Shown here piece by piece: positions 1,659 through 39,685 of a DNA stretch of 40,914 bases. The stretch's first letter is position 1. Each line of letters starts with the position of its first letter. The stretch comes from a virus (lineage: Duplodnaviria; Caudoviricetes), in IMG/VR virus record IMGVR_UViG_3300020045_002072, positions 1-40,914 of that record. One strand, given 5' to 3'. The translations under genes were made by a program, and so were the position numbers. Below the pieces are notes generated by a model. It ran no database searches. It was not told where the DNA came from and worked only from the letters and a program-made list of their open reading frames with translations.

Positions 1659-1700
1659 ATAATATCAGCGCTGGTGGTTATTTCTTTGATATGGATCACT
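1659..1700 (-). promoter_or_regulatory. CRP/FNR-type box plus extended -10 driving dut
   Basis: Minus strand AGTGAT-CCAT-ATCAAA (1700-1685), 20 nt, then TGA-TATTAT (-10 at 1664-1659). Confidence 0.6.
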
Positions 1701-1932
1701 AATCTCTATCCTTATAAACGCCATTCATCACACCCATGCGGTAGATGAACTGGTGATGACTAAAGCCAAGCAACTTCACCGTCTCTCTGTGCTTATCTAT
1801 GATCTGCAAAACTATTTCCATGTTTTCTTTTTTGCACATAGACTTTTCAGTCGCATTCGGTATGCGCCTCTTAACTTCCAGATTGATAGACTTGATAATA
1901 GCTATCAGTGCGTTGTCGTTTTCACAGCTCAT
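1699..1932 (-). CDS. Hypothetical protein
   Basis: 77-aa ORF packed in the leftward operon. Confidence 0.7.
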   Translation of the reverse strand: MSCENDNALIAIIKSINLEVKRRIPNATEKSMCKKENMEIVLQIIDKHRETVKLLGFSHHQFIYRMGVMNGVYKDRD

Positions 1933-1934
1933 TG

Positions 1935-2744
1935 CTAAACCTCACGCCACTGATCTCCATACTTGAACCCCATAATCTCTAAAATGGCATCCATTTCTGA
2001 AATAAATTTAGGGATCGCATCTTCTAATTTCCTGAAAATCTCATCGCGTGGATACTGAGGAATGACAACAAGTCGATTATCAGCGCAGCCTCTAAACTCA
2101 TTATGATATGAGCAGAAATCCCAATTTTGATATCCGGTCACATACATAGAGAATTGACACTGAATGTCATATTCAGGCTTTATTTCACCTTTCAGCTTTG
2201 CCCGCAAATGCACTGAGTCGGTGACTGGGTTTTTAATCTCAAGTCCACATAGATCTGTTAATCCGTCAGGGCTGCAACCAACTCGCAACGATTCGTCCTT
2301 GTAGATGAACCCGCACTGTTCAACGCGCTCAAACTTTAACGCCTCGTATGCCTCACGCGCTACAGGCTCCCATAGGTGACCCCACTCAGCTTGTTTGAAT
2401 GAGGCGTTATCTCTTGGCTTTCCACGGCAAATCTCACCAACGAGATCGAGCATGTAATTCTCTTTCATAAGTGAAGGGATTCTTGGCAAAGAATCTCGCA
2501 CAAAGTCGATGCACTTTGCCTTTGTGCCAATGAATTCCTTTCCTTGGAAAATTACGATATTTTCTCCGCGCTTGCTACCTTCAATGATTTTTATGCCTTC
2601 AGGCAGCGGCGCCCTTGCATCCTCCATTAAAAGAATTTCTGCATTTGACGCGCTAATAACTCCAAGCCTAGATCGCTTCCATTCTTCCGTTCCCTGCTCT
2701 ATCTCAAATGTGTTAATGCCAAGAATGTTATTTTCGTAAATCAT
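1935..2744 (-). CDS. YqaJ/lambda-exonuclease family recombination nuclease
   Basis: EQGTEEW..R.G.ISAS, WG...EP.AR, GCSPDGL, LEIKNP and Q.QFSM motifs; adjacent to RecT. Confidence 0.92.
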   Translation of the reverse strand: MIYENNILGINTFEIEQGTEEWKRSRLGVISASNAEILLMEDARAPLPEGIKIIEGSKRGENIVIFQGKEFIGTKAKCIDFVRDSLPRIPSLMKENYMLDLVGEICRGKPRDNASFKQAEWGHLWEPVAREAYEALKFERVEQCGFIYKDESLRVGCSPDGLTDLCGLEIKNPVTDSVHLRAKLKGEIKPEYDIQCQFSMYVTGYQNWDFCSYHNEFRGCADNRLVVIPQYPRDEIFRKLEDAIPKFISEMDAILEIMGFKYGDQWREV

Positions 2745-3628
2745 TTCATAGCCTCCAGCTTGCGAGCGAATCCTTGTAATTCAGCGTCAGATAAGTCGTC
2801 AATGGCTTTAACTTCACGTTTAACCATCTTTGACGCCCACTCAAGGAATGATTGCATCGCCTTTCCTTGACGCTCCAGTGATGCTTTTATCGAATCAATC
2901 GGGTTGATGATGATTTCAGGCTTTTGATCCCCTTGCTTCTGGTGATTGAATGAAATGCCTTCCTCTCCTTCGGTATTCAGCAAGTCAATTGCAGTATTCA
3001 GGCGATCAACCTTAGGCCAATACTTCGACGCCCGCTTGATCACTGTTTTTCTCACCATTTCAAAATAGTCAGTTACCCATGGCCCCTTCCCTGATTTTCC
3101 AGACTCTGATCGCCCCTTTATCTGATTTACTTCTTCGATCGTCATTTCTTCTGTTAGATATGCGCCAGTATTGGTTCTGACAACACAATAAACGCCAACC
3201 AGGTTTCCGCGATCGCCAAACGTATTTGATTTATGAACTGGAGGCTTATCGATACCGACATTCTCGTAAGTGTCTTTTTCATATACCAGCTTTGCCTGGC
3301 CGAACTCGATTGATCCGGTTGACATCGCAAGGTGAAGTAACCCCATATAAGAAATGTCTAGGCAGATATTCCCTTTTCTAGGTACAAGGTAGGCGTGTTT
3401 ATTTGCCGGATTAAGACTGATCCCGATAGCAGACGCATTGCGCAAAGCATTCTGAACGGATATCGGATTACCCAATGCGATCTTGAGCGCAAAGTCATTG
3501 GCATACAGCAACTGCATCGCATAGTTTGCCTCAGCTCCGAAATCAACATCGTTATGACGTGCAATTAATTTTGTGCATTCTTGCTCTACCGATGAGACGA
3601 CATTCTCGATTGTTAGTTGGTTGCTCAT
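2741..3628 (-). CDS. recT: RecT-family single-strand annealing protein
   Basis: G.SLNP...AYLVPR, L.ISY.GL, GPW.T...EM.RKTVIKR..KYWP. Confidence 0.92.
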   Translation of the reverse strand: MSNQLTIENVVSSVEQECTKLIARHNDVDFGAEANYAMQLLYANDFALKIALGNPISVQNALRNASAIGISLNPANKHAYLVPRKGNICLDISYMGLLHLAMSTGSIEFGQAKLVYEKDTYENVGIDKPPVHKSNTFGDRGNLVGVYCVVRTNTGAYLTEEMTIEEVNQIKGRSESGKSGKGPWVTDYFEMVRKTVIKRASKYWPKVDRLNTAIDLLNTEGEEGISFNHQKQGDQKPEIIINPIDSIKASLERQGKAMQSFLEWASKMVKREVKAIDDLSDAELQGFARKLEAMK

Positions 3629-3643
3629 TGCTTTTACTCCTTG

Positions 3644-3865
3644 TTATTGATTTATTAATTGATTCAGTTTTTCAGTGACCAACTCAAACCCCTCTCGGAC
3701 TGAAAACGGATCTTCACTGCCATCAACATAAACCTGCGTGTAGATCTTTTTGCTTTCATGCGTTCCAGATGACTGAGTGCTTTTTACGCAAACGATAGCT
3801 GAGATTTTATTTACTGGAATTGCAATTTCTCCACAAAGACAACTCAAAAACATTAACTTACTCAT
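3644..3865 (-). CDS. Hypothetical protein, first gene of left operon
   Basis: 73-aa ORF with AAGGAG RBS directly below the left promoter. Confidence 0.75.
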   Translation of the reverse strand: MSKLMFLSCLCGEIAIPVNKISAIVCVKSTQSSGTHESKKIYTQVYVDGSEDPFSVREGFELVTEKLNQLINQ

Positions 3866-3892
3866 ATCAATACTCCTTGTTAGTGTTCGCTA

Positions 3893-3953
3893 ACTATAAA
3901 TCACAATAAATTCAAAATCAACTATTGATTTTAATATATTACAGTTGTAGCAT
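3893..3953. promoter_or_regulatory. Back-to-back divergent sigma70 promoters (PL/PR-like)
   Basis: Left: TTGATT(3921-3916)-17-TATAGT(3898-3893). Right: TTGATT(3925-3930)-17-TAGCAT(3948-3953). The two -35 boxes form the inverted repeat AAAATCAA-cta-TTGATTTT. Confidence 0.7.
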
Positions 3954-3979
3954 TGGTTAATCACAACAGAGGAATAAAC

Positions 3980-4183
3980 ATGAACCTATCAAAATCAACA
4001 AAAATGCTATGCGCAATCAAAGAAACCACTCAGGAAGGAGTTGCAACAGGTGCAGGTGTTAGCGTGTTCACAGTAACAAGAATGATCCACAAGAACGTAG
4101 CAAGCACAAAAACGCTTGAAGCTATAAGTAAGTGGGCGGAAATGGAGGTTTCTGAATTTATTGCGCTAGGGGAAAAGAAGTAA
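3980..4183 (+). CDS. Cro/XRE-like HTH regulator
   Basis: TQEGVATGAGVSVFTVTRM HTH and TLEAIS....M.VSEFIALGE tail; ATG 3980 with GAGG RBS. Confidence 0.8.
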   Translation: MNLSKSTKMLCAIKETTQEGVATGAGVSVFTVTRMIHKNVASTKTLEAISKWAEMEVSEFIALGEKK

Positions 4184-4376
4184 CTAACTTCCATAGTGAT
4201 AGATGTTACACCACTGGTGGATAATCCAAGACACCAATGGTTAGCTGGTTAAACTCCTGAGCTGCAATGGTTGAATAATTAATTGGTGTACGCCAATGGC
4301 GCATACCAGTAAATCAATTATGTAGAATTCAAACAAACAGATATTATGATAAAGGGTGATTAAATATGGAAAAAGA

Positions 4377-4405
4377 TTGCCGGTATTATATTACTGGTTT
4401 ATTAT
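4377..4405 (+). promoter_or_regulatory. Sigma70 promoter for KilA-N gene with palindrome in spacer
   Basis: TTGCCG-17-TATTAT; CCGGTA-ttatat-TACTGG overlaps the -35 and spacer. Confidence 0.5.
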
Positions 4406-4436
4406 ATCCATAATTAGTCACCAATAAGGGCGCAAG

Positions 4437-5042
4437 ATGAAAACTGAAGTCATAATGAAACGCAGATTGTTTGGAAATGAGATCTCGCAAAAAAGTCAGA
4501 GCGAAATGTTTTCAGCAACAGATCTTGTGAAGGCTGGGAACATGTGGCGGATAGCAAATGGCCTTTCTCCTTTTGACGCCAAAGCATGGTTTAAGAATAA
4601 ATCCACATCCGAATTTATCGCTGAGCTTGAGATTAAATACGGAAAAGTGAAGGTTTCAGGCAGAGGGAAGGGATCTCATACATGGGTGCATCCATTGCTA
4701 TTTATTGATATGGCACTAGCAATAAACCCAAAACTAAAGGTTGAGGTTTACGAGTGGTTATTTGATAACCTTATTAAATTCAGAAATGAAAGCGGCGATT
4801 CTTACAAGAAAATGTGCGGTAATTTATACGCCAATCAAGGAGATAAGCGAAATTTTCCCGCATTCGTTTCTGATGTTGCGAACAAAGTAAAATTAGCTTG
4901 CAGAGTTAATGACTGGAACAAGGCAACGGAAGAACAGTTAAACAAAAGAGACAAGATCCATAACAACATAGCCCTTTTATCTGATGTGCTTAGAAATAAC
5001 GATCAGGCAGTTAGAATTGGCATATTGAAGGCAATTGATTAA
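4437..5042 (+). CDS. KilA-N domain DNA-binding protein
   Basis: F.ATDL, WF.NK.T.EFI.EL, GRG....TWVHPLL.ID.A....P...V.VY.W. Confidence 0.88.
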   Translation: MKTEVIMKRRLFGNEISQKSQSEMFSATDLVKAGNMWRIANGLSPFDAKAWFKNKSTSEFIAELEIKYGKVKVSGRGKGSHTWVHPLLFIDMALAINPKLKVEVYEWLFDNLIKFRNESGDSYKKMCGNLYANQGDKRNFPAFVSDVANKVKLACRVNDWNKATEEQLNKRDKIHNNIALLSDVLRNNDQAVRIGILKAID

Positions 5043-5160
5043 TGGTAGAATAGAAAAACCGCTCCATCATTGCCTTGCCGGGCTAGGAGCGGTCCGAATG
5101 TTCAGGTTCAATTATATACCATTCTCCTGAACTCTCATTAATTTTTTGAGGGTTATCTAA

Positions 5161-5883
5161 ATGTCTATGCTTCTAATGGTTAAAGCAATGCAAACCAAGG
5201 TTGGTAATCCATTGCGCAAACTCGTATTACTTAAATTAGCAGACAATGCAAACGATCAAGGTGAATGCTGGCCTTCATTGCAGTACATCGCCGATCAATG
5301 CGAGATCAGCAAGCGATCAGTTATATCTCACATATCTGCACTTTGTGACTCTGGCTTGTTAAAAAAAGAGCACAGAGAAGGAAAGTTTAAAGCCAATGCA
5401 AGCAACCTATACACGCTAACAATACATAGTGAAACTCCTGCACTACATAGTGCAAATAATTCACTAGGTGGTGAAACTCCTGCACTACCCCCTAGTGAAA
5501 CTCCTGCACCCAGAATCAGTAACTCTTTAGAACCAGTCATTGAATCAGTCATAGATCCTAAAGATAGCGCGATTAGCAAAAAGACCTTTTCACTTCCTGA
5601 AAAACTAAATCTAGCCGCATGGTCACTCTGGGTTGAATACCGCAAACAGCAAGGATTCAAGCCATACAAACAAGTCGCACTCGGAGAGGGAGCGGCGGCA
5701 AGCAAGCTGATAGAGTTAGCTGGGGGCGATCCTGCAAAACAATTGGCGATAGTGAACCAGTCAATATCAAATCAGTGGAAGGGCCTTTTCGAACTAAAGG
5801 CAGAGCAGCAGCAGAAATCAGCAATTCGACAAACCGGATTCACTGCCAGCGACAATCCATCTTGCACCGTGGGGAAGATCTGA
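5161..5883 (+). CDS. Phage replication initiator (O-like, N-terminal HTH)
   Basis: KLVLLKLADNANDQGECWPSLQYIADQCEISKRSV N-terminus, internal iterons, C-terminal QSISNQWKGLF; precedes DnaC-like and DnaB genes. Confidence 0.88.
   Translation: MSMLLMVKAMQTKVGNPLRKLVLLKLADNANDQGECWPSLQYIADQCEISKRSVISHISALCDSGLLKKEHREGKFKANASNLYTLTIHSETPALHSANNSLGGETPALPPSETPAPRISNSLEPVIESVIDPKDSAISKKTFSLPEKLNLAAWSLWVEYRKQQGFKPYKQVALGEGAAASKLIELAGGDPAKQLAIVNQSISNQWKGLFELKAEQQQKSAIRQTGFTASDNPSCTVGKI
5427..5511. repeat. Replication origin iterons within the initiator gene
   Basis: Four TAGTG-N9-CACTA-type units at 5427, 5448, 5469 and 5493; three carry GTGAAACTCCTGCAC. Confidence 0.8.
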
Positions 5884-5884
5884 A

Positions 5885-6676
5885 ATGACGAATCAAATAA
5901 GCCTGTCAGTGCTATCTTCCGCTAAATCAATAACGGCGAAATGTGAAATTCACGGCATTGATTATCAGAAGCATGATTTTTTTGGTCGCGGATATCACGG
6001 CATTTGCCCTGAATGCGCAAAAGAAGATGATCAAGCAAAGTTCGACGCAGAACAGAAGGCTATCAAGGAAAGCAATGACGCAAAACTGAATGAACTCAGA
6101 AATGATCGGATTAAGTCATCTGGACTGCCTGCCCGCTTTGCATGGAAAACATTTTCAGACTATGTACCAACAACGCCAGATCAAGAACACGCGCTTACGG
6201 TTGTTGCTGGATACGCTAAAGACACCACAAAACTAAAACTAGGTCGCGGGATGATCATCACTGGCACGGTCGGGGTCGGGAAAACTCACCTGGCGGCATC
6301 AATCATCAACGAAATTATTAAGCCTGATAATTCAGTAAATGCGATCTATGTCACATTCAGCGACATGATCCGTCATATAAGATCGGCATGGCGCGATCGT
6401 AGTGTTGATGAGCAGTCACTGATAAACAAATACTCATCGGTATCAATGCTAATCATCGATGAGATCGGTGTTCAGTTTGGAAGCGATAGCGAGATGGTGC
6501 AGATGTTCGAGGTTATGAATAAGCGGTATGGTGAAATGCTGCCGACTGTTTTGATTTCTAACCTGCAAATGGATGAATTATGCAAGCTGCTAGGCGACCG
6601 CATAATAGACCGTATGCGCGAAGATGACGGCATAGCGGTGCGGATGGATTGGGAAAGCAATCGGAGTGCGGCATAG
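5885..6676 (+). CDS. DnaC/IstB-like AAA+ helicase loader
   Basis: C..H...CPEC Zn motif, Walker A GTVGVGKT, LIIDEIG, SN, RIIDRM. Confidence 0.92.
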   Translation: MTNQISLSVLSSAKSITAKCEIHGIDYQKHDFFGRGYHGICPECAKEDDQAKFDAEQKAIKESNDAKLNELRNDRIKSSGLPARFAWKTFSDYVPTTPDQEHALTVVAGYAKDTTKLKLGRGMIITGTVGVGKTHLAASIINEIIKPDNSVNAIYVTFSDMIRHIRSAWRDRSVDEQSLINKYSSVSMLIIDEIGVQFGSDSEMVQMFEVMNKRYGEMLPTVLISNLQMDELCKLLGDRIIDRMREDDGIAVRMDWESNRSAA

Positions 6677-9665: not shown

Positions 9666-9708
9666 TGTGATCTAAATCAAATTTCGCAATCACAATATGA
9701 TTTATAGT
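9666..9708 (+). promoter_or_regulatory. CRP/FNR-type box at -41.5 plus -10
   Basis: TGTGAT-CTAA-ATCAAA (9666-9681), 21 nt, TATAGT (9703-9708). Confidence 0.65.
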
Positions 9709-9738: not shown

Positions 9739-9888
9739 GTGTCAATCGTAAGCAACAAGGCAGTAAAGCGCGATAAGGCCGCAGAGGCAGCAATCAAGAA
9801 GCTCCAGCAAGCGCGACAGGTTATTGAGCGAATTAAAGAGCTTGAATCGTTAATTTTTGAATGTTCGACAATTGGGGTGTGCAAATGA
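9739..9888 (+). CDS. Small hypothetical protein (GTG start)
   Basis: AAGGAG at 9727-9732, GTG at 9739 in frame with the tracked ORF 9697..9888. Confidence 0.6.
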   Translation: MSIVSNKAVKRDKAAEAAIKKLQQARQVIERIKELESLIFECSTIGVCK

Positions 9889-10139
9889 AAACAAGAATAG
9901 TAGTGCGTATTGCGTTAAATGCTGAAAATGAGCGGGTTGGTTATCTGGTTTACGCTGCTGGGCGGTTTATTCCGTTCCAAGGAGATACAGATTTTGAGTA
10001 TGACAGAAATGCCCGGTCGTCATCCTGCTTGGAAGGTTTCAGCAGCTTTCGTGGCGTTCATCACTTCAAGTCGTTCGCCAGGCAGTGGTTTAGAGCAGTC
10101 CGCTTCCAGCGAGTAACACTGATCGGAGAATCAAAGTGA
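9885..10139 (+). CDS. Hypothetical protein
   Basis: ATG 9885 overlaps the upstream TGA; MKTRIVVRIA... Confidence 0.65.
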   Translation: MKTRIVVRIALNAENERVGYLVYAAGRFIPFQGDTDFEYDRNARSSSCLEGFSSFRGVHHFKSFARQWFRAVRFQRVTLIGESK

Positions 10140-10279
10140 TCGAAGAATACAAACAACGCAGCAGTGAAGAGTTAATCGCATTAAGTGAGATGCTTGAAGA
10201 TTCAATCTTTCCAGTAACAAAAGAATGGTTTCAAGGTGAAGTAGATAAAATTAAACAGGAAAAGGAGCAAGCAAAATGA
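10136..10279 (+). CDS. Small hypothetical protein (47 aa, not in track)
   Basis: GTG start after GGAG; MIEEYKQRSSEELIALSEMLEDSIFPVTKEWFQGEVDKIKQEKEQAK; coupled on both sides. Confidence 0.65.
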   Translation: MIEEYKQRSSEELIALSEMLEDSIFPVTKEWFQGEVDKIKQEKEQAK

Positions 10280-10857
10280 CAAAGAAAAAACGCGAGTTGA
10301 TAGATCTTATGTTTGAGGCCGGAATAACACCAGAAACGTGGCCAAAAAAAGCAATTTACGCGTGCCAGGATAAAGAGACGCTTACTTGGGGTAAAAGCGC
10401 ATTAATGTTTTATACAAATTATGAGGTTCCGCATGTAAGAGAAGGTCGGAATAATTTTGTAGGAGAAAAAATAGGCCCAATAATTGAACTACCAGAACTC
10501 TGTCACAAGTGGAACAAAACAATCGTGCATCGCGACGAGTTTATGAAGCGATGGAATGAGTGCATACACAGCGATCAAACAGCATTGCTACGCGAATCAA
10601 TGCCACCATGCAGCGAAGAAATTCCGTGTCGTTTTGTTAATGAAAAATCACCGCTAGAAACACAAATCGGCGGCGATCACTACACGAAACCAGCTATCCA
10701 GCCAATGCAATACAGCATGAAAAACAAACTCGATCCATTGCAGCATACGATTATCAAGTATGTAACTCGATTCCGTGATAAGGCAGGAATTGAAGATCTT
10801 GAAAAGGCGAAGCATTGCATTGATATGCTGATTGAGTTTGAAAAGGAAAGTAAATGA
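10276..10857 (+). CDS. DUF3310 (T7 gp1.7-like) domain protein with N-terminal extension
   Basis: C-terminal QIGGDHY....IQP...IIKYVTR...K.GIEDLEKAKH. Confidence 0.8.
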   Translation: MTKKKRELIDLMFEAGITPETWPKKAIYACQDKETLTWGKSALMFYTNYEVPHVREGRNNFVGEKIGPIIELPELCHKWNKTIVHRDEFMKRWNECIHSDQTALLRESMPPCSEEIPCRFVNEKSPLETQIGGDHYTKPAIQPMQYSMKNKLDPLQHTIIKYVTRFRDKAGIEDLEKAKHCIDMLIEFEKESK

Positions 10858-11321
10858 CAACTATCGTTTTTGACGGTAAGACGCTGGCGGTTGATACCGG
10901 AATGTATAGCAATGAAACATACAGCGGCGAAGTCTCAAAAGTGCGTGAAATTGAGTTAAACGGGAAGAAATGCTTGATCGCTATGTGCGGAGAGTTTGCA
11001 GACTTTGAGCCGTTTATCAGTAAGATCACGGGCGGGGAGTGTAGTCACGATACAAGCGGATCCGCGTTCATTGTTATCAACATCAACAATCCATCTGATT
11101 ATACAGCTTACGAGAAAAACGCACCGATGCAGCACCCGTTGCCATACTGCAACGGCAGTGGGCATCAAATAGCGATGGGCTCAATGCACCAAGGATCTGA
11201 TCCGGTTTACGCAGTGAAAGCCGCCTGTAAGTATAACGCCTTCACGGAATACCAGATTGAAGTATTCCGCTTTAAGAAAAAAGGCGGTTACAAGTACAGC
11301 AAGATCGAAAAGCCCGCTTAA
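10854..11321 (+). CDS. Proteasome/HslV-like Ntn-hydrolase fold protein
   Basis: M-TTIVFDGKTLAVD start, conserved K, CG, GSG...A.G, AV.AA...D/N..T. Confidence 0.7.
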   Translation: MTTIVFDGKTLAVDTGMYSNETYSGEVSKVREIELNGKKCLIAMCGEFADFEPFISKITGGECSHDTSGSAFIVININNPSDYTAYEKNAPMQHPLPYCNGSGHQIAMGSMHQGSDPVYAVKAACKYNAFTEYQIEVFRFKKKGGYKYSKIEKPA

Positions 11322-11337
11322 TGCGGGTTTATTTTTT
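11311..11337 (+). terminator. Intrinsic terminator
   Basis: AGCCCGC-ttaat-GCGGGTT-TATTTTTT. Confidence 0.7.
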
Positions 11338-15639: not shown

Positions 15640-15668
15640 TTGTAATTACACTATGTAAGTACTATTAT
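15640..15668 (+). promoter_or_regulatory. Sigma70 promoter of moron cassette
   Basis: TTGTAA-17-TATTAT; CRP-like TGTGA-N6-CCGCA at 15596-15611 is centred near -71.5. Confidence 0.6.
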
Positions 15669-15707: not shown

Positions 15708-16016
15708 ATGAAAGCATATGTAAGTTACGATATCAACTGCGAAGAAATATACGATGAAGATGGTGAAGTTTCTTACGGCGATGATTACTGGTTGATCAGT
15801 AACGTTTTTGTAGAGAAAGCATTCCGCGGTCAAGGCGTCGCTCGCAAGATGATGGCTGAGGCTATCGCAGAGATGAAAGCTGAACGCCCAGAACTGAAAA
15901 TAAAACTGGTTGCGATTCCACAGGATGATGAAACAGAGATTGAATTGTTGGGAGCCTTCTACGAATCATTGGGATTTGAAGCAATCGGCGACGAAATCGG
16001 AACAATGGAGCTGTAA
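15708..16016 (+). CDS. GNAT-family acetyltransferase (acidic, single domain)
   Basis: VFVEKAFRGQGVA (acetyl-CoA motif A) and FYESLGF. Confidence 0.88.
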   Translation: MKAYVSYDINCEEIYDEDGEVSYGDDYWLISNVFVEKAFRGQGVARKMMAEAIAEMKAERPELKIKLVAIPQDDETEIELLGAFYESLGFEAIGDEIGTMEL

Positions 16017-16192
16017 TGAACCAAACACAAAAGCAGAACATAAAACGGCGCAATACACCGCGCATGCCAATCGTCTATACAACCGCAGAAATTATGCAAA
16101 AGCTGGACTATCTAGCCGGAATTCACGGCAGCAAGAAGGCCGCTATCGAGGCGGCTATTTGTGAGTTATTCAACAAGGAGAAAGAAAAATGA
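16016..16192 (+). CDS. Small ribbon-helix-helix-like protein, copy 1 (58 aa, not in track)
   Basis: MNQTQKQNIKRRNTPRMPIVYTTAEIMQKLDYLAGIHGSKKAAIEAAICELFNKEKEK; TAATG and ATGA coupling. Confidence 0.75.
   Translation: MNQTQKQNIKRRNTPRMPIVYTTAEIMQKLDYLAGIHGSKKAAIEAAICELFNKEKEK
16095..16184 (+). repeat. 90-bp direct repeat, copy 1
   Basis: 89/90 identical to 16828-16917. Confidence 0.95.
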
Positions 16193-16739: not shown

Positions 16740-16925
16740 ATGAAAAAACAAACACCACAGCAACGTCAAAACATTAAGCGATCTGGCGATCCAAGATTGC
16801 CAACCGTTTACACAACAGCAGAAATACTGCAAAAGCTGGACTATCTAGCCGGAATTCACGGCAGCAAGAAGGCCGCTATTGAGGCGGCTATTTGTGAGTT
16901 ATTCAACAAGGAGAAAGCAGAATGA
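16740..16925 (+). CDS. Small ribbon-helix-helix-like protein, copy 2
   Basis: MKKQTPQQRQNIKRSGDPRLPTVYTTAEILQKLDYLAGIHGSKKAAIEAAICELFNKEKAE; paralog of 16016..16192. Confidence 0.75.
   Translation: MKKQTPQQRQNIKRSGDPRLPTVYTTAEILQKLDYLAGIHGSKKAAIEAAICELFNKEKAE
16828..16917 (+). repeat. 90-bp direct repeat, copy 2
   Basis: 89/90 identical to 16095-16184. Confidence 0.95.
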
Positions 16926-17844: not shown

Positions 17845-18887
17845 GCGCCAACGAATACCTGATCGACGCATCAACCCGCCATCAATTAATGTTGCAACGA
17901 CTCTCTGGAGGGTCGTTCAATAAACTTAAACCACTACTAGAAAAGCTGCAAAAAGATATCAGAGCTAGGCTTTCTGAGAATCCAACTGATTTTCAGATGA
18001 ACAGGCTGACTTCATTGATGCGAGATATTCAATCTATATTCGATGCAGCTAACTCGGAGGTATCAAAGCAGCTAAATCTTGATCTCGAAGAGTTCATTCC
18101 ATACGAAACCGATTTTCAATATCGGATGCTTGGCAATGCCGTTACTACTGAATTGACACTGCCAGCAGTTGAGCAGGTTGTGGCGGCTGTTACTACTGCA
18201 AAGGCTGAGCTGATTAGCGGTAAGGTAACAAAAAAATTAACTATTAGCGGGATGGTTAAAACTCTTGGCGAAAATCCAAAGACCATAGAAAACAAGATCC
18301 GCGCCGGAATCATCGAAGGCAAATCAGTTGATCAGATGGTACGTGACATCATGCGAGTTGCTAATCAGGCGCATAAGCGAGATGTGCGAACCGTTGTTCG
18401 GACGGCGTTTAACTTAGCTGGCAGTGAAGCACGAAGAGAGGTTAATGCGGCTAACTCTGATGTGTTGATTGGCGAGCGGTTAATTGTCACTCTTGATTCA
18501 CGTACCAGCGTTACATGTTACGGGCTGTCAGTAAAAGGCATCATCTATAAGATCGGAGAAGGCCCACAGCCGCCGTTACATTTTGGATGCAGGACGGTAA
18601 GGGTTGGTGTAGTTGATCCGCGCTATGCAGTACCTGGTATTAAGGGCCTTAAATCCGCTCGTGGTGATAATGGTGTAGAGAAAATTGATGTCGATGTCAC
18701 TTTTGATCAATTCCTGAAAAACCAATCAGTTGCATTCCAGAAAGAGTTCTTTTACAAGTTCTCCGGCGGTCATTACAAATACGATGCATGGAAGGCTGGC
18801 AAGATTTCAGGAGCTGATTTCGTTGATGGAAAAGGCGCAGAGATTGATCTGAGTTATTTAAAATCACTCGACAGCATCACTTTGTGA
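17841..18887 (+). CDS. Minor head protein (SPP1 gp7/Mu gpF-like)
   Basis: TVVRT, TLDSRTS..C, PPLHFGCRT. Confidence 0.88.
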   Translation: MSANEYLIDASTRHQLMLQRLSGGSFNKLKPLLEKLQKDIRARLSENPTDFQMNRLTSLMRDIQSIFDAANSEVSKQLNLDLEEFIPYETDFQYRMLGNAVTTELTLPAVEQVVAAVTTAKAELISGKVTKKLTISGMVKTLGENPKTIENKIRAGIIEGKSVDQMVRDIMRVANQAHKRDVRTVVRTAFNLAGSEARREVNAANSDVLIGERLIVTLDSRTSVTCYGLSVKGIIYKIGEGPQPPLHFGCRTVRVGVVDPRYAVPGIKGLKSARGDNGVEKIDVDVTFDQFLKNQSVAFQKEFFYKFSGGHYKYDAWKAGKISGADFVDGKGAEIDLSYLKSLDSITL

Positions 18888-18924
18888 TGTAGATCAATGT
18901 TTGTTTTTGCATGAGTGGTATTGT
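18883..18924 (+). promoter_or_regulatory. CRP/FNR-type box plus extended -10
   Basis: TGTGAT-GTAG-ATCAAT (18883-18898), 20 nt, TGG-TATTGT (-10 at 18919-18924). Confidence 0.6.
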
Positions 18925-19630: not shown

Positions 19631-19786
19631 CCATCACCACAAAAACTAACCAACCTTCGCGCTGGTTTTTTATTGCCAACCATCTGTCAATAGTCTTTAT
19701 CAATTAAACTTTCCATTATCAATAGGTTTGGGCTATCATATCGACAGTGCAAGCGGTGCTTGTTAATTGATGATACGGGGTATCAA

Positions 19787-25167: not shown

Positions 25168-25195
25168 ATTATGAGGTTTATTTTTTGACTGTCAA
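25168..25195 (-). promoter_or_regulatory. Sigma70 promoter for rha
   Basis: TTGACA(25195-25190)-16-CATAAT(25173-25168). Confidence 0.65.
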
Positions 25196-25603: not shown

Positions 25604-25677
25604 TGGAGCGAGTGGCGGGAATCGAACCCGCGCATAATGATTGGAAGTCACCAGTTCTACCACTGAATTACACTCGC
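25604..25677 (-). tRNA. tRNA-Gly (TCC)
   Basis: GCGAGTG acceptor/CACTCGC-T-CCA, D-loop AGTGGTA, anticodon loop CTTCCAA, T-arm GCGGG-TTCGATT-CCCGC; 74 nt with encoded CCA. Confidence 0.93.
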
Positions 25678-26453: not shown

Positions 26454-26843
26454 ATGACATTCGATCTGGCAACATTAGACACGGCAAAAGTAGCAGAAGA
26501 AGGCGCGGAGTTACTCGTTGCGCATCCTGCCACTGGTGAAGAATTGGGCATTAAGATCTCATTGATCGGCATGGACTCGAAAACATTCCGTGACATTTCA
26601 AAGACTCGCGCCACCGCATCACTGAAAAAGAAATCACGTGATATTGATTTAGATCAAGGTGAGGTTGAGTCAATCGAGCTGCTGGCAAAATGCACCAAAG
26701 GATGGGAAGGCATCACAGAGAATGGGATTGAAGTGCCATTCAGCTATGAAAATGCCGTGAAGCTTTACGCTAAATACCTGTGGCTGAAAGAGCAGGTTGA
26801 TCGCTTCATTGTGGATCGCTCAAATTTTTTGCCGAGTGCGTAG
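26454..26843 (+). CDS. Tail assembly chaperone (gpG-like)
   Basis: HPATGE.LG..I...G.DS, W..I, WL.EQVD.F..DRSNFL. Confidence 0.85.
   Translation: MTFDLATLDTAKVAEEGAELLVAHPATGEELGIKISLIGMDSKTFRDISKTRATASLKKKSRDIDLDQGEVESIELLAKCTKGWEGITENGIEVPFSYENAVKLYAKYLWLKEQVDRFIVDRSNFLPSA
26822..26831 (+). other. Programmed -1 frameshift site producing the gpGT-like fusion
   Basis: In-frame A AAT TTT / T TTT TTG; the -1 frame is open into ORF 26855..27280. Confidence 0.8.
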
Positions 26844-32845: not shown

Positions 32846-33631
32846 ATGAGTCTTTTTACTCAAATAAACGCGGTGTCTAGCGACTCGACACTGACAAAAG
32901 TTAATGCTAACAAAATCCGATTTTTTGGAGAAGAGGAGAAGTCTGCTTACGCGCACTGGATTTTAGCGGGAGACTCAAGCAGTCTGGTTGATATTGTAAA
33001 TGCTAAAGCGCTAACTCCGCAGCAAGCCGAATTTGCTCCCAGCTACAAATACAATCATTTGTCGATTAGCTCAAAATACAACAAGTCATTAATGACGGAC
33101 AGATACGAGGGCGCTACTACTGATGCATATACATTAGCAATGGTGTGCCGCTTCCCAGTTCTCCCGGGTGGTGGAGCGGCTGTTGTTTTGTGTGGAAATA
33201 TGACCTATGGATTAGCAACAAATACCGGCGGTTCGCCGTACATGTTCTTGAATACAGGAACTGAAACAATGGGCCTCAATGAAACATTCAACGGCGCGCT
33301 GTCAGCTAGAGATACCGCGCTTGATATCACCAGGAATGTTTGGGTGTTTTTTGCGGTTTCAGTATCGTACCCAACACTTAATTCGCTACACCCAATTATT
33401 GCGCTGAATGCGGTTAATTATGACGCTGGTGTGCAGACTGGAGCATACCGACCAAACACGCTACAGCCACTTTCACTTGGTAATGTAGCTTATAATCGCG
33501 GAACTGACGCAGATGTCACTATTGATATCGCCGAGTCAATGCTTTTCAATAAAGCGCTTTCTAGTGCTGAATTGTCAGCTCTTTATTCTAGATCACAAAA
33601 AAGAATGAGTCGTCGAGGAATAACCATTTAG
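32846..33631 (+). CDS. Putative ConA/LamG-like lectin tail accessory protein
   Basis: W.F.AVS, LSLG and ALS.AE...LY pattern; adjacent to the esterase fibre. Confidence 0.6.
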   Translation: MSLFTQINAVSSDSTLTKVNANKIRFFGEEEKSAYAHWILAGDSSSLVDIVNAKALTPQQAEFAPSYKYNHLSISSKYNKSLMTDRYEGATTDAYTLAMVCRFPVLPGGGAAVVLCGNMTYGLATNTGGSPYMFLNTGTETMGLNETFNGALSARDTALDITRNVWVFFAVSVSYPTLNSLHPIIALNAVNYDAGVQTGAYRPNTLQPLSLGNVAYNRGTDADVTIDIAESMLFNKALSSAELSALYSRSQKRMSRRGITI

Positions 33632-33720
33632 TTGTAGTTGTTTTTAATGTCATCAACGGCGGAGTAAATAACTCCGCCAATTAAAACCAGAATGATTGTG
33701 ATAATTGAAACTGTCAGCAT
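33628..33720 (-). CDS. 30-aa single-TM peptide (not in track)
   Basis: AAAGGAGA RBS, MLTVSIITIILVLIGGVIYSAVDDIKNNYN*, own promoter. Confidence 0.7.
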   Translation of the reverse strand: MLTVSIITIILVLIGGVIYSAVDDIKNNYN

Positions 33721-33788: not shown

Positions 33789-33796
33789 GAATTCAA

Positions 33797-34679: not shown

Positions 34680-34702
34680 AACCTATCAATCAGGCGGATT
34701 TA

Positions 34703-37486
34703 ATGGGTAAAGTTTCGATATACAAATCAGCATTCGACAAAGATCCAGCGCATGAACTGCAAGCAGAAGGAAAGCTGCTTGATTGGCTTGTAGAAAACAT
34801 CGGCGGATTCGATCCGCTGTCTAGTTGGCACCCATTCACTGTTTTGATTAACGGGGCGCTGATTGATCAAAGGTGCTGGCCTATCGTGCACATTAAATCG
34901 GGCGATGTTGTCGAGTGGCGGGCAATGCCTCAAGATCCTGCAAGCTGGACAATTGCAACTTGGATCATGATTGCATCAGCGGCGGTATCTGTTGGATCGC
35001 TTATTTATGCGCTATCAATGAAAAAAGGCGTCAGCGGATCAAGCGCGAGCGCGCAAGGCTCTGCGATCACATCAGCATCAGCAACAGCGAATCAGCCTAA
35101 ACTTTTCGGAGTTGTCCGTGAATTATTCGGGCAACACATCTGTTATCCAGATTATCTTAATCAGCCTCGCAAGTGGTTTTCTGGCATAAAAGAGCAGTCG
35201 ATGGATGTCTTAATGGCTATCGGAGTTGGATATTATGATCTGCCAATTTCAAGAATGTTCATTGGTGAGACTGGTTTTGCAACCTTCGGTGAGTTTTTGA
35301 ATTACTCGCTATTCGATCCTGGTGTCAACATTTCATCACACCAAGCACATAAATGCTGGTATAACGCGCCAGAGGTTGGCTATACAGACTCATCATCAGG
35401 TCTTACATTGACCGCCGGAGCTTATGGCACTCAATACATGAGCGGCTCGCAGTATGCAGTATCTGGTCAGCAAATTACTATTCCTATCGGTAGCGGATCA
35501 CCTCCGGCAGATTGGGAAATTGGGAATAAGGTATCAATAAGCACGCCAAACATTCCGTTTACGGTAACAAACGGGACAACTAGAGATATCGTTTCTGGTG
35601 AATTCAGCAAATTATCATTATCTACTGGCAATACCATTGCGATATCTGGCGCACCTAGCAATAACGGGCTATACAAAATTTTCAGCTATACTGCTGGAAT
35701 TGATCCAGCATTAGATCAGATGACGCTAGATGTATGGGATACGAGAATTGTAAATAATATTGAGGTTACAGGTTGGTATCCTGCTGACTCGCTAACCACT
35801 GGCTCGAATAATGGCGACATACAAAAGCAGGGGCAGCGTTATGAGATTGACTCGATAATAACCGAATCGGTTGACGGAAGTGATGTTTCCATAGGTTTCT
35901 CTTTTACTAGGCTTCTTCTTGACGGTGAGAACGTAGATCCATCATGGGTTGGCTTTCAATATGAAAGCACTCTTCCTGACGCAATTATAGAGCTAGATCA
36001 ATCACAGGTCGTTGGCGGCTGGCTAGGCTGGTTCCCCGTTTGTCCGTCAGGCGAAACAACATCGCTGATCGAGTGGGATTTAACTACACCTAACGGTTTC
36101 GGGAAAATAAACAGCAGCGGAAGCATTGAAGGTAGATCTCGACGGGTTCAATATCAAATTAGGGTTGTCGGTGAGGCTGATCCGCTGATTAACGATTATT
36201 ACACCATCTCCGGAGCATCGCGGGATCAGCTCGGTTGGTCGCCACAGCTGGTGATTGCTAATGGTCGATATGAAATGCGCGTCCGCCGTATTGGTGCAGA
36301 AGACACAGCCACTAACTCAATGGACACGATTAATTGGTTCGGCCTGAAGTCACTACTTCCTACACCGACAAGCTACGCAGGCATAACCACGCTTGCTTTA
36401 ACTCTGACCGGCTCAGACACTATCGCGTCACAGACCGAAAACAAGATCAATGTCGTACCGCAACGCAAGCTGCAAATAGTGCAAGATGGCGCATTTACTA
36501 CCACACTTTATCCGACTAATGACATCGCGCCAGTTGTTAGGTATATCGCTCATTCAGTTGGTTATGACGACACGCAGATCGATATTGCCGAACTGATCCG
36601 CCTCGATGCGATCTGGAAAGCGCGCGGAGATACCTTCAAATACATCTATGATTCAAATGTCGTTGTGCGTGACGCCATTAACACAGCTTTGAATGTCGGC
36701 TTTTCTGAAATGACGGTAAGCCAAGGCAAGATCAAGCCGGTGCGCGATGAGCCGCGCGATATGCTGAACGCTCACATGTACACGCCACAAAATATGACAA
36801 AGACTCTAAAGACCAGCTTCTCGGTCGTTACGCCAGAGGAATCAGACGGCATTCGCGTGACTTATGTTGATGAAGATACATGGGAAGAGGCAACCGTGCT
36901 TTGCTTACTGCCAACAGATACCGGATTCAAACTTGACGAGATCACAATTGACGGCGTGACTACCCGCGATAAGGCTTATCAGTTAGGAATGCGCCAGCGC
37001 TCTATTCAATTCCACCGCCGCAAGAAATACACATTCAGCACAGAAATGGATGCACTAAACTCTGAATATTTTTCCACTGCCGTGCTGGGTGATGACATTC
37101 CAAGTTATGCGCAGTCAGGAATTATGTGGAGTATTCAGTCGCAAGGAGCCGACAAAGCTCTGATCCAATCTTCTGAAATGTTCACATGGAAAGATGGCGC
37201 GTCTCACGTTGTTTCATGGCGCAAGGCTAACGGCAAAATTGCAGGCCCATTTCCATGCACTAAAGTTAGTGATTTTTACCTGCTAGCAACCATCGGATCT
37301 GAACCGCTACCGACGATTAACGGCACACAAGAGCCGCCACATCTGCTATTCGGTACATCGACAGAATACGGCTATCCTGCAATCGTGACAAAGGTTGCCC
37401 CGTCGGGACGATTCGATATTGCAGTTGAGGCGGTCAATTACACAGATTCAGTGTACGCATATGACAACGCAACAGCTCCGGATTAA
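34703..37486 (+). CDS. Central tail tip/host-specificity protein (gpJ-like with fused gpI-like N-terminus)
   Basis: 927 aa; VRELFG....YPDYL, YE.RVRR, PVRDEPR, terminal AVNY...VY.YDNA. Confidence 0.87.
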   Translation: MGKVSIYKSAFDKDPAHELQAEGKLLDWLVENIGGFDPLSSWHPFTVLINGALIDQRCWPIVHIKSGDVVEWRAMPQDPASWTIATWIMIASAAVSVGSLIYALSMKKGVSGSSASAQGSAITSASATANQPKLFGVVRELFGQHICYPDYLNQPRKWFSGIKEQSMDVLMAIGVGYYDLPISRMFIGETGFATFGEFLNYSLFDPGVNISSHQAHKCWYNAPEVGYTDSSSGLTLTAGAYGTQYMSGSQYAVSGQQITIPIGSGSPPADWEIGNKVSISTPNIPFTVTNGTTRDIVSGEFSKLSLSTGNTIAISGAPSNNGLYKIFSYTAGIDPALDQMTLDVWDTRIVNNIEVTGWYPADSLTTGSNNGDIQKQGQRYEIDSIITESVDGSDVSIGFSFTRLLLDGENVDPSWVGFQYESTLPDAIIELDQSQVVGGWLGWFPVCPSGETTSLIEWDLTTPNGFGKINSSGSIEGRSRRVQYQIRVVGEADPLINDYYTISGASRDQLGWSPQLVIANGRYEMRVRRIGAEDTATNSMDTINWFGLKSLLPTPTSYAGITTLALTLTGSDTIASQTENKINVVPQRKLQIVQDGAFTTTLYPTNDIAPVVRYIAHSVGYDDTQIDIAELIRLDAIWKARGDTFKYIYDSNVVVRDAINTALNVGFSEMTVSQGKIKPVRDEPRDMLNAHMYTPQNMTKTLKTSFSVVTPEESDGIRVTYVDEDTWEEATVLCLLPTDTGFKLDEITIDGVTTRDKAYQLGMRQRSIQFHRRKKYTFSTEMDALNSEYFSTAVLGDDIPSYAQSGIMWSIQSQGADKALIQSSEMFTWKDGASHVVSWRKANGKIAGPFPCTKVSDFYLLATIGSEPLPTINGTQEPPHLLFGTSTEYGYPAIVTKVAPSGRFDIAVEAVNYTDSVYAYDNATAPD

Positions 37487-37505
37487 GTAAAGATATGATA
37501 GTATT

Positions 37506-37841
37506 ATGAAAATTTTGCACGAGAGGGCGCGGGAGATGATCAACTGGTTACGGGAAGTTGATAGTTCATTATGGGGTGTAATTATGTCGATAACTATGGC
37601 CGTGTTGCGAATTGTGCGCGACAAAGAGGAAGATAAATTTTTCCGAATTGCAGTAGAGGCGTTACTCTGCGGGGCTATTACGTTCACTATCGGGTCAGGC
37701 GTTAAGGCGCTAGGTTATGAAGGTTGGGATTTATTTATTGGTGGCGCTGTTGGAATGGCTGGTAGTCAGTATGTCAGGGCGCTTGGTCAAGCATGGATGA
37801 AGCGTAAAGCCGGAAGTGTAGAAGAAAATAAAGCCCCGTAA
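37506..37841 (+). CDS. Holin, lambda S-like family
   Basis: Three hydrophobic segments, A.LR...D, EALLCG, FIGG.VG..G, basic C-terminal KRKAG. Confidence 0.82.
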   Translation: MKILHERAREMINWLREVDSSLWGVIMSITMAVLRIVRDKEEDKFFRIAVEALLCGAITFTIGSGVKALGYEGWDLFIGGAVGMAGSQYVRALGQAWMKRKAGSVEENKAP

Positions 37842-37851
37842 CGGGGCTTTT
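37830..37851. terminator. Bidirectional intrinsic terminator
   Basis: AAAGCCCC-GTAAC-GGGGCTTTT between converging genes. Confidence 0.75.
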
Positions 37852-37886
37852 AACTGACCGAATAAAGCATAAACGTTAAAACAACA

Positions 37887-38135
37887 TTAACCGCCAACAC
37901 GATCAGAATTAACGGAAATAGATTTCTCATTATCTTCTCCACCAATCGCAGTAACCTGCATAATTGTTTTGCTTGCGGAATCGACCTCATCAAGCAGAGA
38001 ATCGAGATACTCATGCGGCGTTAAAATGTCGTTGCAGCCAGTTGTAATATTAACCGCTTCAATTTGATGCACAGATTCAAGCAGTTTTGATGCTGCATAT
38101 TTCAGTGTTGCCAGTTCAAGATACGTGAAATTCAT
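37887..38135 (-). CDS. Hypothetical protein
   Basis: 82 aa, coupled leftward cluster. Confidence 0.65.
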   Translation of the reverse strand: MNFTYLELATLKYAASKLLESVHQIEAVNITTGCNDILTPHEYLDSLLDEVDSASKTIMQVTAIGGEDNEKSISVNSDRVGG

Positions 38136-38323
38136 GCTTTGCGCTCCTGCAAAATCAACCGACAGCCTTGCTGATCTGCTAGCGTCATGCTGTTATGGTT
38201 GCGCTCAGTTACTACAGGCCATGATTCTTGCAATGCCAGATAAGCCTCGTTCATTGTCGCGTAACCAGTGATAAACGGATTGCGCGGATTTCCTGCTGCA
38301 TCAACTAATTTTCCTGTGATCAT
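38132..38323 (-). CDS. Hypothetical protein
   Basis: ATG 38323 (MITGKLV...) with AACAAGGAG RBS below a boxed promoter. Confidence 0.65.
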   Translation of the reverse strand: MITGKLVDAAGNPRNPFITGYATMNEAYLALQESWPVVTERNHNSMTLADQQGCRLILQERKA

Positions 38324-38351
38324 TTTTGTTACTCCTTGTTTTCGTGTTTTA

Positions 38352-38393
38352 ATAATAGCAATCACCACAGAACAAACATTGATCAAGATCACA
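38352..38393 (-). promoter_or_regulatory. CRP/FNR-type box plus extended -10
   Basis: Minus strand TGTGAT-CTTG-ATCAAT (38393-38378), 20 nt, TGC-TATTAT (-10 at 38357-38352). Confidence 0.65.
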
Positions 38394-38607
38394 CTTTCGT
38401 TAATTCGTAATATCTCAATACATCATCTTGAGTGATAGCCGCTGAATCAATAATGTGCCACAGATCAGGATTGCTTCCGCTTGCAATATCCAATCGCACA
38501 ACAGGCTCAACTGGTGATAATTTGCCCATCACTAATACGGTTCGCTTATGCTGATCCATGCTGCGAAATACACTGAACCGATCGCCTTGCTTGTCTAATA
38601 CAATCAT
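38389..38607 (-). CDS. Hypothetical protein
   Basis: 72 aa, AGGAG RBS. Confidence 0.65.
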   Translation of the reverse strand: MIVLDKQGDRFSVFRSMDQHKRTVLVMGKLSPVEPVVRLDIASGSNPDLWHIIDSAAITQDDVLRYYELTKV

Positions 38608-38798
38608 ACAATCTTAAACTCCTGTACTAAAAATTTACCAGACGGCATTTTTTTGGATCTTTGCAACCGAACTTTGCTTAGTCCATGCGCTAACACAGTC
38701 GCGATACTCACCACGCGCCAACCTTGAATATCCACCAAGCTTAAGCCATAATCCAGCACTTTTAAGATCATTAAATTTAGCATCGTTAAATTCAGCAA
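38604..38798 (-). CDS. Hypothetical protein
   Basis: 64 aa, coupled. Confidence 0.55.
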   Translation of the reverse strand: MLNLTMLNLMILKVLDYGLSLVDIQGWRVVSIATVLAHGLSKVRLQRSKKMPSGKFLVQEFKIV

Positions 38799-38801
38799 TC
38801 A

Positions 38802-39302
38802 TCACGAAACCTCATAAAAACTAACAATGAAAACAATTGGCTTTATTGTTTCAACAACAGCCAGGCTTCCGTGTTTTATATAGCAAACGCCTTTAGGAAC
38901 CGCGATTTTACCGAACTTAATTTCAGCGTAACTTCTTCTTAGCCATCGATATCCAGAATCTAAAAGACGCTGCTTTGCTTCACCGAAAGTATCAGTTATC
39001 TCATGGCGCTTGAATTCGATCTTCATTTTTCTGCGCGGAGCTTTCCGAATTCTGATTTTATACGTTACGCATGAAGCATAAATAATACTGCATCGCATCA
39101 TAATCTCTGATGAGCGAATCAGTTTTTTTGCTTTAACTGGTGACAGTCCAAGCATCTCATAAACGCATTCGATGCTTTGACCCTGCTCAACCATATTGAT
39201 AAACTCGCAAGCAAGATCATCATCAATGGCAGTGAATGGCTGCAATTTCTCGCAGCGCTCCATTAGTTCAGTTATGCAAATCATCTGCTTTACTCGCTGC
39301 AA
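38802..39302 (-). CDS. Hypothetical protein, possible HTH
   Basis: GQSIECVYEMLGLSPVKAKKLI resembles an HTH; start uncertain. Confidence 0.55.
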   Translation of the reverse strand: MQRVKQMICITELMERCEKLQPFTAIDDDLACEFINMVEQGQSIECVYEMLGLSPVKAKKLIRSSEIMMRCSIIYASCVTYKIRIRKAPRRKMKIEFKRHEITDTFGEAKQRLLDSGYRWLRRSYAEIKFGKIAVPKGVCYIKHGSLAVVETIKPIVFIVSFYEVS

Positions 39303-39585
39303 TATCCCATTCGTTAGATTCGCGCTCTGACTTTGCGAAATTAGTCAGCAACAGCCAGGCGTGTTTGTTGCCGTCATCCAGCATACGGAAAACATGCTGC
39401 TTCCACTGGTTACGCTTAATAAAAACACCAACCTGCTGGCAGTGCTTATATTCATAAGCAGCGTCAAACATGCACCACATCGCCTCATAAAGATCAGTTT
39501 GCGTTGCCAGATAGTTAAAGAAATCATCGAGCCGAGTTTCGTAAATTAGCTGCGCATGTTCGTCTGCGTTGTATTGTTGTTTCAT
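39268..39585 (-). CDS. Hypothetical protein
   Basis: ATG 39585 (MKQQYNAD...) with AAGGA RBS under the leftward promoter. Confidence 0.65.
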   Translation of the reverse strand: MKQQYNADEHAQLIYETRLDDFFNYLATQTDLYEAMWCMFDAAYEYKHCQQVGVFIKRNQWKQHVFRMLDDGNKHAWLLLTNFAKSERESNEWDIAASKADDLHN

Positions 39586-39615
39586 TCTGTTATTCCTTGC
39601 CGTTTCGATGAGATA

Positions 39616-39685
39616 ATTATCATTCACTACCGATAACAAAACAGTGATCTAGATCAACTAAATGCGATTATGTTTGAGTTATTAT
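39616..39685. promoter_or_regulatory. Divergent promoter pair sharing one CRP/FNR-type box
   Basis: AGTGAT-CTAG-ATCAAC (39643-39658); TATTAT 21 nt to the right (39680-39685) and GATAAT on minus 21 nt to the left (39621-39616). Confidence 0.65.

Follow-up and report, generated by a model that had tools for sequence, protein, structure and literature searches.

FNR-type boxes at class II spacing head accessory-gene promoters in a Tolumonas phage: a probable variant of host-regulator co-option

How would promoters with a good -10 element and no -35 element be switched on in a phage that carries no regulator of the CRP family? The question is raised by IMG/VR virus record IMGVR_UViG_3300020045_002072, which was analysed over its whole length of 40,914 nt (hereafter the window). 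The record has direct terminal repeats and represents a complete 40.8-kb phage, from a family that infects Tolumonas, in which six 16-mer boxes combine features of the sites of two host regulators. CRP binds TGTGA-N6-TCACA and FNR binds TTGAT-N4-ATCAA, and both activate class II promoters from about -41.5. A first-pass annotation of this DNA had proposed that a repressor-less phage hands control of its accessory and early cassettes to a host carbon or oxygen sensor through these boxes. The results described here indicate that the boxes are a real feature, which would be an FNR variant of the co-option of host regulators and is narrower than what was first claimed. On balance, the boxes are probably FNR sites located about 41 bases upstream of the transcription start, where they would activate seven accessory-gene promoters in anoxia.

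The box promoters (P1 to P6) and the open reading frames (ORFs) behind them are as follows.

P1, 1659..1700, minus strand: hybrid box at 1700-1685, 20-nt spacer, TGn and -10 TATTAT at 1664-1659; heads genes for dUTPase (1193-1627), a 60-aa ORF (1014-1196) and a Dam-family methyltransferase (472-1017); weak ribosome site (GGGGT).
P2, 9666..9708, plus strand: hybrid box at 9666-9681, 21-nt spacer, -10 TATAGT at 9703-9708; directly 3' of ninG, heads ORFs 9739-11321, the first starting with GTG at 9739; terminator-like hairpin at 11310-11330.
P3, 18883..18924, plus strand: hybrid box at 18883-18898, 20-nt spacer, TGn and -10 TATTGT; the head morphogenesis gene ends with the TGA of the box; small ORFs from 18942, hairpin at 19648-19667.
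P4, 33747..33788, minus strand: perfect FNR-type box at 33788-33773, 20-nt spacer, -10 TATAAT; heads a hydrophobic ORF of 30 aa (33628-33720), which is antisense to tail genes.
P5, 38352..38393, minus strand: hybrid box at 38393-38378, 20-nt spacer, TGn and -10 TATTAT; ORF 38389-38607 ends with the TGA of the box; heads ORFs 38132-38323 and 37887-38135; terminator-like hairpin at 37850-37830.
P6, 39616..39685, both strands: box at 39643-39658 between back-to-back -10s, each 21 nt away; rightward, TATTAT at 39680-39685 (plus strand) leads to the tandem helix-turn-helix (HTH) gene; leftward, GATAAT at 39621-39616 (minus strand) leads to ORF 39268-39585 (P6L).
39715..40176, plus strand: tandem-HTH protein, the main phage-encoded candidate for a reader of the box.

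The positions, strands and letters of all six boxes agree with the first-pass annotation, as do their halves (GTGA upstream in five of six, with TGTGA in three; ATCAA downstream in all six). Measurement of the spacers likewise upheld the reported geometry, wherein the core TGAT-N4-ATCA lies 20, 21, 20, 20, 20 and 21 nt (P1 to P6) upstream of a good -10, and TGn precedes the -10 at three promoters (boxes 1700, 18883 and 38393). Taking the start of the -10 as -12, the box centre falls at -40.5 (P1, P3, P4 and P5) or -41.5 (P2 and P6). Each box is followed by an ORF, with a weak ribosome site at P1 and a GTG start at P2. Box 39643-39658 also serves the second, minus-strand -10 (GATAAT), which has a ribosome site and an ORF of 105 aa behind it, and the six boxes thus give seven promoter-like sites. 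A -35 element is absent at all seven, where the best -35 scores range from -1.7 to 0.4 (background median, -0.6); the -10 and -35 weights are E. coli values, with a -10 accepted at a score of at least 5. The FNR word TTGAT-N4-ATCAA is exact in one box (P4) and has a single mismatch, G for the first T, in the other five, whereas the CRP word TGTGA-N6-TCACA is matched within one mismatch by one box of six, and five of six have one good half. In natural CRP sites, one of the two halves is often poor. Behind the box promoters lie short cassettes (dut with dam, small ORFs, the hydrophobic peptide, the tandem-HTH gene) that end in hairpins, and the hairpins listed sit at the cassette ends, not at the boxes. 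PHROGs named few of the target genes, and a database search with the P6L protein yielded no function. A short inverted repeat around the -10 in the P1 spacer region (1659-1700) is kept in relatives and could be a hairpin or a second operator.

The sites are enriched in intergenic promoter DNA beyond chance. Among the 20 orientations of TGAT-N4-ATCA words in the window, seven have a -10 at 20-21 nt, whereas order-4 Markov genomes contained 0.067 such sites on average and never more than 2 (300 simulations); none of the other 29 spacings tested (8 to 38 nt) had more than two. Six of the ten core words lie wholly or mostly outside genes, a compartment that makes up 6.4% of the window according to the gene list made in this analysis. 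A looser search for TGA-N6-TCA returned the same seven sites, and the combination of TGA-N6-TCA with a -10 revealed no CRP-only promoters in the window. An origin of the boxes in Dam/GATC was considered, as GATC is present in every box and 1.7-fold enriched, and was rejected: the order-4 Markov control keeps the GATC frequency and still yields 0.067. A perfect FNR word at 26644-26657, within the tail assembly chaperone gene, has no -10 and is likely a chance occurrence.

Relatives of the phage were found by a pattern scan of IMG/VR (86 loci), and 20 records were fetched, of which 12 match the window at 77-90% nucleotide identity, one at 69%. TGA-N6-TCA followed by a -10 at a distance of 20-21 nt occurs at 50 sites (46 of them distinct) in the 331,946 bases of family DNA, window included. 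Both T6 and A11 of the box are present in 44 of the 46 distinct sites, and the remaining two have no ribosome site. The presence of each box was counted with genes as anchors and the window included, with one truncated record dropped each at P1 and P3. The P1 box is found in all six records that cover the start of dut and the P5 box in 10/10 records. The P2 box lies within 330 nt of the first ORF in six of eight records and upstream of an inserted gene in the other two; the P6 box lies within 330 nt on each side in seven of eight, and upstream of an inserted gene in the eighth. The P3 box is present in four of the five records covering the gene end, the fifth (G001) having no promoter there. 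Within promoter classes the half-sites are 100% identical, although eight of their ten letters were fixed beforehand by the search pattern, whereas identity is 45-95% in the spacer halves and 55-100% in the four central bases. At P5, all six loose contig ends downstream of the box in four wastewater runs differ in the spacer and keep the -10 at 20-21 nt (by hand). Other genes behind boxes in relatives encode DNA methyltransferases and PAPS-reductase-like proteins, and most of the 46 proteins scanned belong to no family. Conservation in related phages, which had also been put forward as a check, is thus seen for the boxes and their spacing while spacers and downstream genes change; P4 departs from this pattern, as it is private to the window (0/10 relatives covering the gene junction). 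Of the 57 capsid and 80 terminase relatives in IMG/VR, most lack the element, and an orthologous box promoter was found only in L182.

The box appears to be interchangeable with a -35 element. G001 and G007 have the same -10 and leader, preceded by a TTGTAA -35 in G001 and by a box in G007, and chimeric promoters of box and -35 type occur in four records. This swap is the best evidence available from sequence that the box supplies the role of a -35, i.e., activation. G001 keeps four box promoters although its replication module is different, its Cro is unrelated and it lacks KilA-N, dut and dam. The promoters appear to behave as exchangeable cassettes. The G001 genome is near-complete and shares its tail and portal with the window, while its replication module resembles a primase-polymerase plus helicase; its capsid (40%) and lysis genes are different, which suggests module exchange around conserved box promoters.

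The host genus can be identified because CRISPR spacers match the phage family. Family contigs are present in two of the 11 genomes of the genus of G032, a metagenome-assembled genome (MAG) of Tolumonas sp. A second genome of this genus, G033, is a single 3.47-Mb contig with a CRISPR array beside type I-F-like cas genes. In this array, 19 of 91 spacers match the family within 5 mismatches, including three exact matches and three within 5 mismatches of the window itself, and a CC protospacer adjacent motif lies upstream in 11 of the 15 best matches. No match (0/91) was obtained with reversed spacers or with 1.09 Mb of DNA from other phages. On this spacer evidence, Tolumonas is the host genus of the phage family. 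The array lies at 1497899-1503360 of G033 contig C1, and 14 of the 19 matching spacers are among its first 19; the cas region contains no FNR-type box at class II spacing. Of the 24 listed public runs that hold the family best, 18 are wastewater metagenomes (share 0.25-0.42), and all 30 bins were covered in the four wastewater runs examined.

The host genus encodes canonical FNR and CRP. The FNR of G032 scores 473.6 bits against an NCBIfam Fnr cut-off of 228 and has the four-cysteine pattern and a V-E-T-I-S-R helix, and the host CRP helix, R-E-T-V-G-R, is as in E. coli. In ten of the 11 genomes, a top-scoring CRP/FNR-family HTH lies in an open frame of 256-260 aa. Published work indicates that FNR reads TTGAT-N4-ATCAA through Glu209, Ser212 and Arg213 (TTGATCTAGATCAA; PMC4505428) and links the G in the CRP half-site to Arg180 (PMC1274295). 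G032 also encodes a third CRP/FNR-family protein (contig C348, L633), which has a different recognition helix and is not named by NCBIfam.

Host promoters were found to share the phage layout. When the class II pattern was applied to four genomes of the genus, it returned 12 sites: adhE in all four, fsa in all four, ackA once, ppsR once and two without a downstream ORF. The host adhE, fsa and ackA promoters have a box-to--10 distance of 21 nt, with the adhE box 21 nt before TATAAT in all four larger genomes searched and the same promoter in MAG G032. As the pattern found on the phage also picks out host adhE, fsa and ackA, the phage promoters would seem to copy host fermentation promoters. Among perfect FNR words in G033, 6/10 are intergenic, and five lie at adhE, grcA, fsa/glycyl-radical activase, nsrR and norR. 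The first-pass annotation had seen no CRP-family gene in the phage, and no match to a CRP-family HTH (HTH_Crp_2) was found in the window. A host activator of the CRP/FNR family at the class II position is thus the best reading of the boxes, because the host possesses both regulators, its adhE, ackA and fsa promoters have the same layout, and the phage lacks a gene of this family. The proposal of a host carbon or oxygen sensor stands to this extent, with the evidence favouring FNR over CRP.

FNR-type boxes are also found in phages outside the family. Two T4-like fragments, G015 and G016, carry perfect FNR words at class II spacing (five and three sites, plus five further G016 hits at other spacings). 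These sites (G015: 5155, 6496, 15000, 41104 and 43330; G016: 196, 28605 and 32548) lie 20-21 nt before TATAAT or TACAAT and head small-gene cassettes, and G016 has genes resembling anaerobic ribonucleotide reductase. G018, a complete 38-kb phage with similarity to the window in the dut region and NinG, has two or three perfect FNR words at class II spacing (3755, 33010), one possibly bidirectional. None of the G033 spacers matches G015-G020. A spacing test across IMG/VR, using the perfect FNR word with TATAAT (122 loci, 50 of 64 parts scanned), gave a raw peak of 87/122 at the class II distance; once the loci had been dereplicated (43 groups), 13 and 8 clusters remained there compared to 0-6 at the other ten spacings. 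This excess lends weak support to the generality of the design. A large set of AT-rich contigs (L265, L274 and related loci) has a perfect FNR-type palindrome at gene ends or in frame, which inflates motif scans and looks like a coding coincidence.

If a host regulator reads the box, the choice lies between FNR and CRP. FNR is the likelier reader because T6 and A11 are retained in 44/46 family sites, whereas both bases occur in 19 of 90 host CRP-type words (counted by hand among the 90 sites listed out of 108). It is unlikely, though conceivable, that CRP-cAMP is the main or an equal reader, in which case the hybrid box would be an either-or switch on carbon starvation and anoxia. Four observations would suit CRP: 34 of 35 forward family sites carry GTGA as their upstream half, the helix of the host CRP is that of E. 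coli, CRP-type words are enriched in G033 (108 compared to 36 in the control), and the hybrid form persists both at wobble positions and in the distant relative G004. Bell et al. 1989 reportedly described hybrid half-site sequences that answer to both FNR and CRP. The contrast in T6 and A11 argues the other way, as do P4, which is a pure FNR word, and the lack of any family promoter with a full CRP word that lacks the FNR bases. A reader encoded by the phage would have precedent in T4 MotA and lambda CII, and the tandem-HTH protein could activate the box promoters as middle genes in this manner. Its gene stands behind P6 in all eight records that hold it (in one with a gene inserted between), and the protein has HTH features and a second helix region (IRYH-like) that is fairly conserved. 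However, the six copies are only 31-56% identical, and the first recognition helix differs widely while the half-sites are constant; this protein would also need to activate its own -35-less promoter. Furthermore, the word and spacing equal those of the host adhE promoter, and G015 and G016, neither of which is matched by the window in tblastx, show perfect FNR words at this distance too. Cro and KilA-N are ruled out by G001, whose Cro is unrelated, and the control region of the window Cro has no box. Taken together, these results make a phage-encoded reader quite improbable. Least probable of all, and hardly to be expected, is that the promoters are activator-independent (extended) -10 promoters, with the box acting as a repressor site, a regulator sink or a recombination handle. 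Three of the seven promoters have TGn, two boxes contain the stop codon of the upstream gene, and the cassettes are shuffled between loci, as are PeSL cassettes (PMC2839356). Four promoters, however, have neither TGn nor a -35, the 20-21 nt spacing is held while the letters of the spacer change, and the box replaces the -35 in the chimeras, with contact bases constant and the central four bases variable.

Several observations nevertheless weigh against activation by FNR. The CRP-type G found in 34 of 35 forward family sites occupies a position at which the FNR consensus has T, leaving these sites one base off the FNR optimum. In the host, 12 of 17 exact hybrid words are in coding DNA; the five that are intergenic, two of which precede genes for a D-lactate dehydrogenase and a transporter of the DASS type, all lack a -10 at class II spacing. 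The window phage (G000) and G001 have the tandem-HTH, ribbon-helix-helix, Rha and P6L proteins in common, which are possible readers. The target genes have no obvious tie to anaerobic metabolism, and most belong to no family. The three promoters with TGn could fire without an activator, and some promoter classes are partly duplicated (P3 and P5), so that the boxes represent fewer than six independent events. The raw peak in the IMG/VR-wide scan derives mostly from two clusters that resemble coding or gene-end coincidences, and G015 supplies three.

Under the FNR reading, host FNR would sit at the box in an anoxic cell and stand in for the missing -35, and sigma-70 polymerase would start at the box promoters; we infer FNR binding and activation at these sites. 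The five sites that have a GTGA half may be read by CRP-cAMP as well. Because the replication and recombination genes keep ordinary promoters, gating by oxygen would be limited to a shuffled accessory layer and would not extend to the whole lytic cycle. The gated layer would comprise dUTPase, DNA methyltransferases, PAPS-reductase-like genes (in relatives), small ORFs and the tandem-HTH regulator. Ordinary -35 promoters at 3893-3921, 4377-4405, 15640-15668 and 25168-25195 serve recT/exo, kilA-N/replication, an acetyltransferase cassette and rha. Consequently, of the 'accessory and early cassettes' first assigned to the boxes, the accessory genes and dut/dam remain, whereas the main early operons do not. 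The ordinary promoters and regulators of interest are listed below.

3865..4183, both strands: divergent control region without a box; leftward -35 TTGATT at 3921 and -10 TATAGT ending at 3893 lead to recT/exo.
3980-4183, plus strand: Cro-like HTH gene, 67 aa (LacI-type HTH E 6e-5 and HTH_26 E 0.034, both under cut-offs).
15640..15668, plus strand: second promoter class; -35 TTGTAA, 17 nt, -10 TATTAT, with two 8-bp GTAA(T/G)TAC words.
16016-16192 and 16740-16925, plus strand: paralogous small proteins, likely ribbon-helix-helix, with weak structural matches.

The description of the phage as repressor-less was incorrect because it overlooked the Cro-like HTH gene at 3980-4183. The window phage additionally encodes the tandem-HTH protein, two likely ribbon-helix-helix proteins, Rha and KilA-N as regulators, and no integrase or recognisable CI was found among the 67 window ORFs scanned. 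In the control region at 3865-4183, the -35 elements of the divergent promoters lie in one palindrome (about 3913-3931) beside the Cro-like gene, with no CI gene. The promoter at 15640-15668 heads the cassette containing the two likely ribbon-helix-helix genes, and its lower half is fused to a box in some relatives. The ribbon-helix-helix candidates show weak matches (Z about 3) over residues 17-58 to NikR, PutA52, AmrZ and antitoxin domains; a Foldseek search with the small repressor model was empty, and a wider search gave Z under 4. The GTAA(T/G)TAC word is probably a ribbon-helix-helix operator serving autorepression, and the likely phage repressor would overlay some box promoters via this separate 8-bp word. 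The second promoter class occurs in the window, G001, G003, G011, L181, L708 and L712 and recombines with box promoters.

The closest known design is the class II FNR promoter (FF-41.5, PMC4505428; host adhE), which is alike in its TGAT-N4-ATCA core, TCTAGA-like centre, position at -40.5/-41.5, good -10 and lack of a -35. The present promoters differ in that they lie on a phage, in that five of six boxes have a CRP-type G and one is bidirectional, and in that their function is predicted. Class II promoters that depend on CRP, such as CC-41.5, offer a further comparison. These promoters (galP1, PMC2613000) share the GTGA upstream half, the position and, at some, TGn; here, ATCAA instead of TCACA is present at all six forward promoters, and neither T6 nor A11 varies. 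Phages are known to have co-opted the host regulators CtrA (phages of Alphaproteobacteria), Spo0A (phi29) and LexA (several phages), and these cases resemble the present one in having several sites for a global host factor, small uncharacterised genes and unrelated phages (PMC9437464). In contrast, the factor here would be FNR, acting as an obligatory activator that replaces the -35 at dispersed cassettes, and whereas CtrA binding to phage sites was demonstrated by electrophoretic mobility shift assay (PMC9437464), the boxes in the window are putative sites. That paper contains no occurrence of FNR or CRP. PeSL cassettes of T4-type phages are similar repeated promoter cassettes with exchangeable non-essential genes and hairpin bounds (PMC2839356), but consist of a strong sigma-70-like promoter and a stem-loop, unlike the -35-less promoters with an activator box in the 41-kb siphovirus-like genome described here.

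Few precedents link FNR to phage genes. Salmonella studies that included FNR place few prophage genes under host regulators (PMC7380047), and a single predicted EtrA site precedes LambdaSo prophage genes (PMC3078092). A review of phages in anaerobic systems refers to FNR solely as a regulator of host metabolism, and the word 'promoter' does not occur in it (PMC7599459). No FNR or CRP promoter programme across a phage genome was found in the literature searched, which took in few subscription journals. To our knowledge, phages have almost always been studied in the presence of oxygen. If the FNR reading is true, the phage reads the redox state of its host directly and has a layer of genes that is silent in ordinary aerobic plaque assays. 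FNR switches on CRISPR-Cas under anoxia in Citrobacter (PMC12669028), and an anoxia-timed accessory layer in a phage would be a plausible counterpart. A bolder proposal, which we regard as tentative and rather doubtful, is that a CI-less, integrase-less phage has put half-FNR/half-CRP boxes in place of the -35 of its exchangeable cassettes and uses them as an either-or switch for anoxia and carbon starvation, and that FNR is an overlooked general input to lytic phages. In that event, expression of DNA-modifying and host-takeover genes would be confined to hosts that are fermenting or starved, and unrelated phages (T4-like G015/G016, and G018) would have reached the same FNR-box design. The case is directly testable, as the host genus is known from spacers, the FNR and CRP helices are as in E. 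coli, and natural promoter pairs are available whose sole difference is a box in one and a -35 in the other.

The remaining gene content of the window is that of a phage with RecT, exonuclease, O-like, DnaC-like, DnaB, NinB and NinG proteins and siphovirus-type head and tail genes. No close named relatives were found among GenBank phages (blastn with the tail region; tblastn with capsid, RecT and portal), the proteins being less than 50% identical. A tRNA-Gly(TCC) gene is located at 25604-25677 on the minus strand, between the neck and major tail genes and antisense to both.

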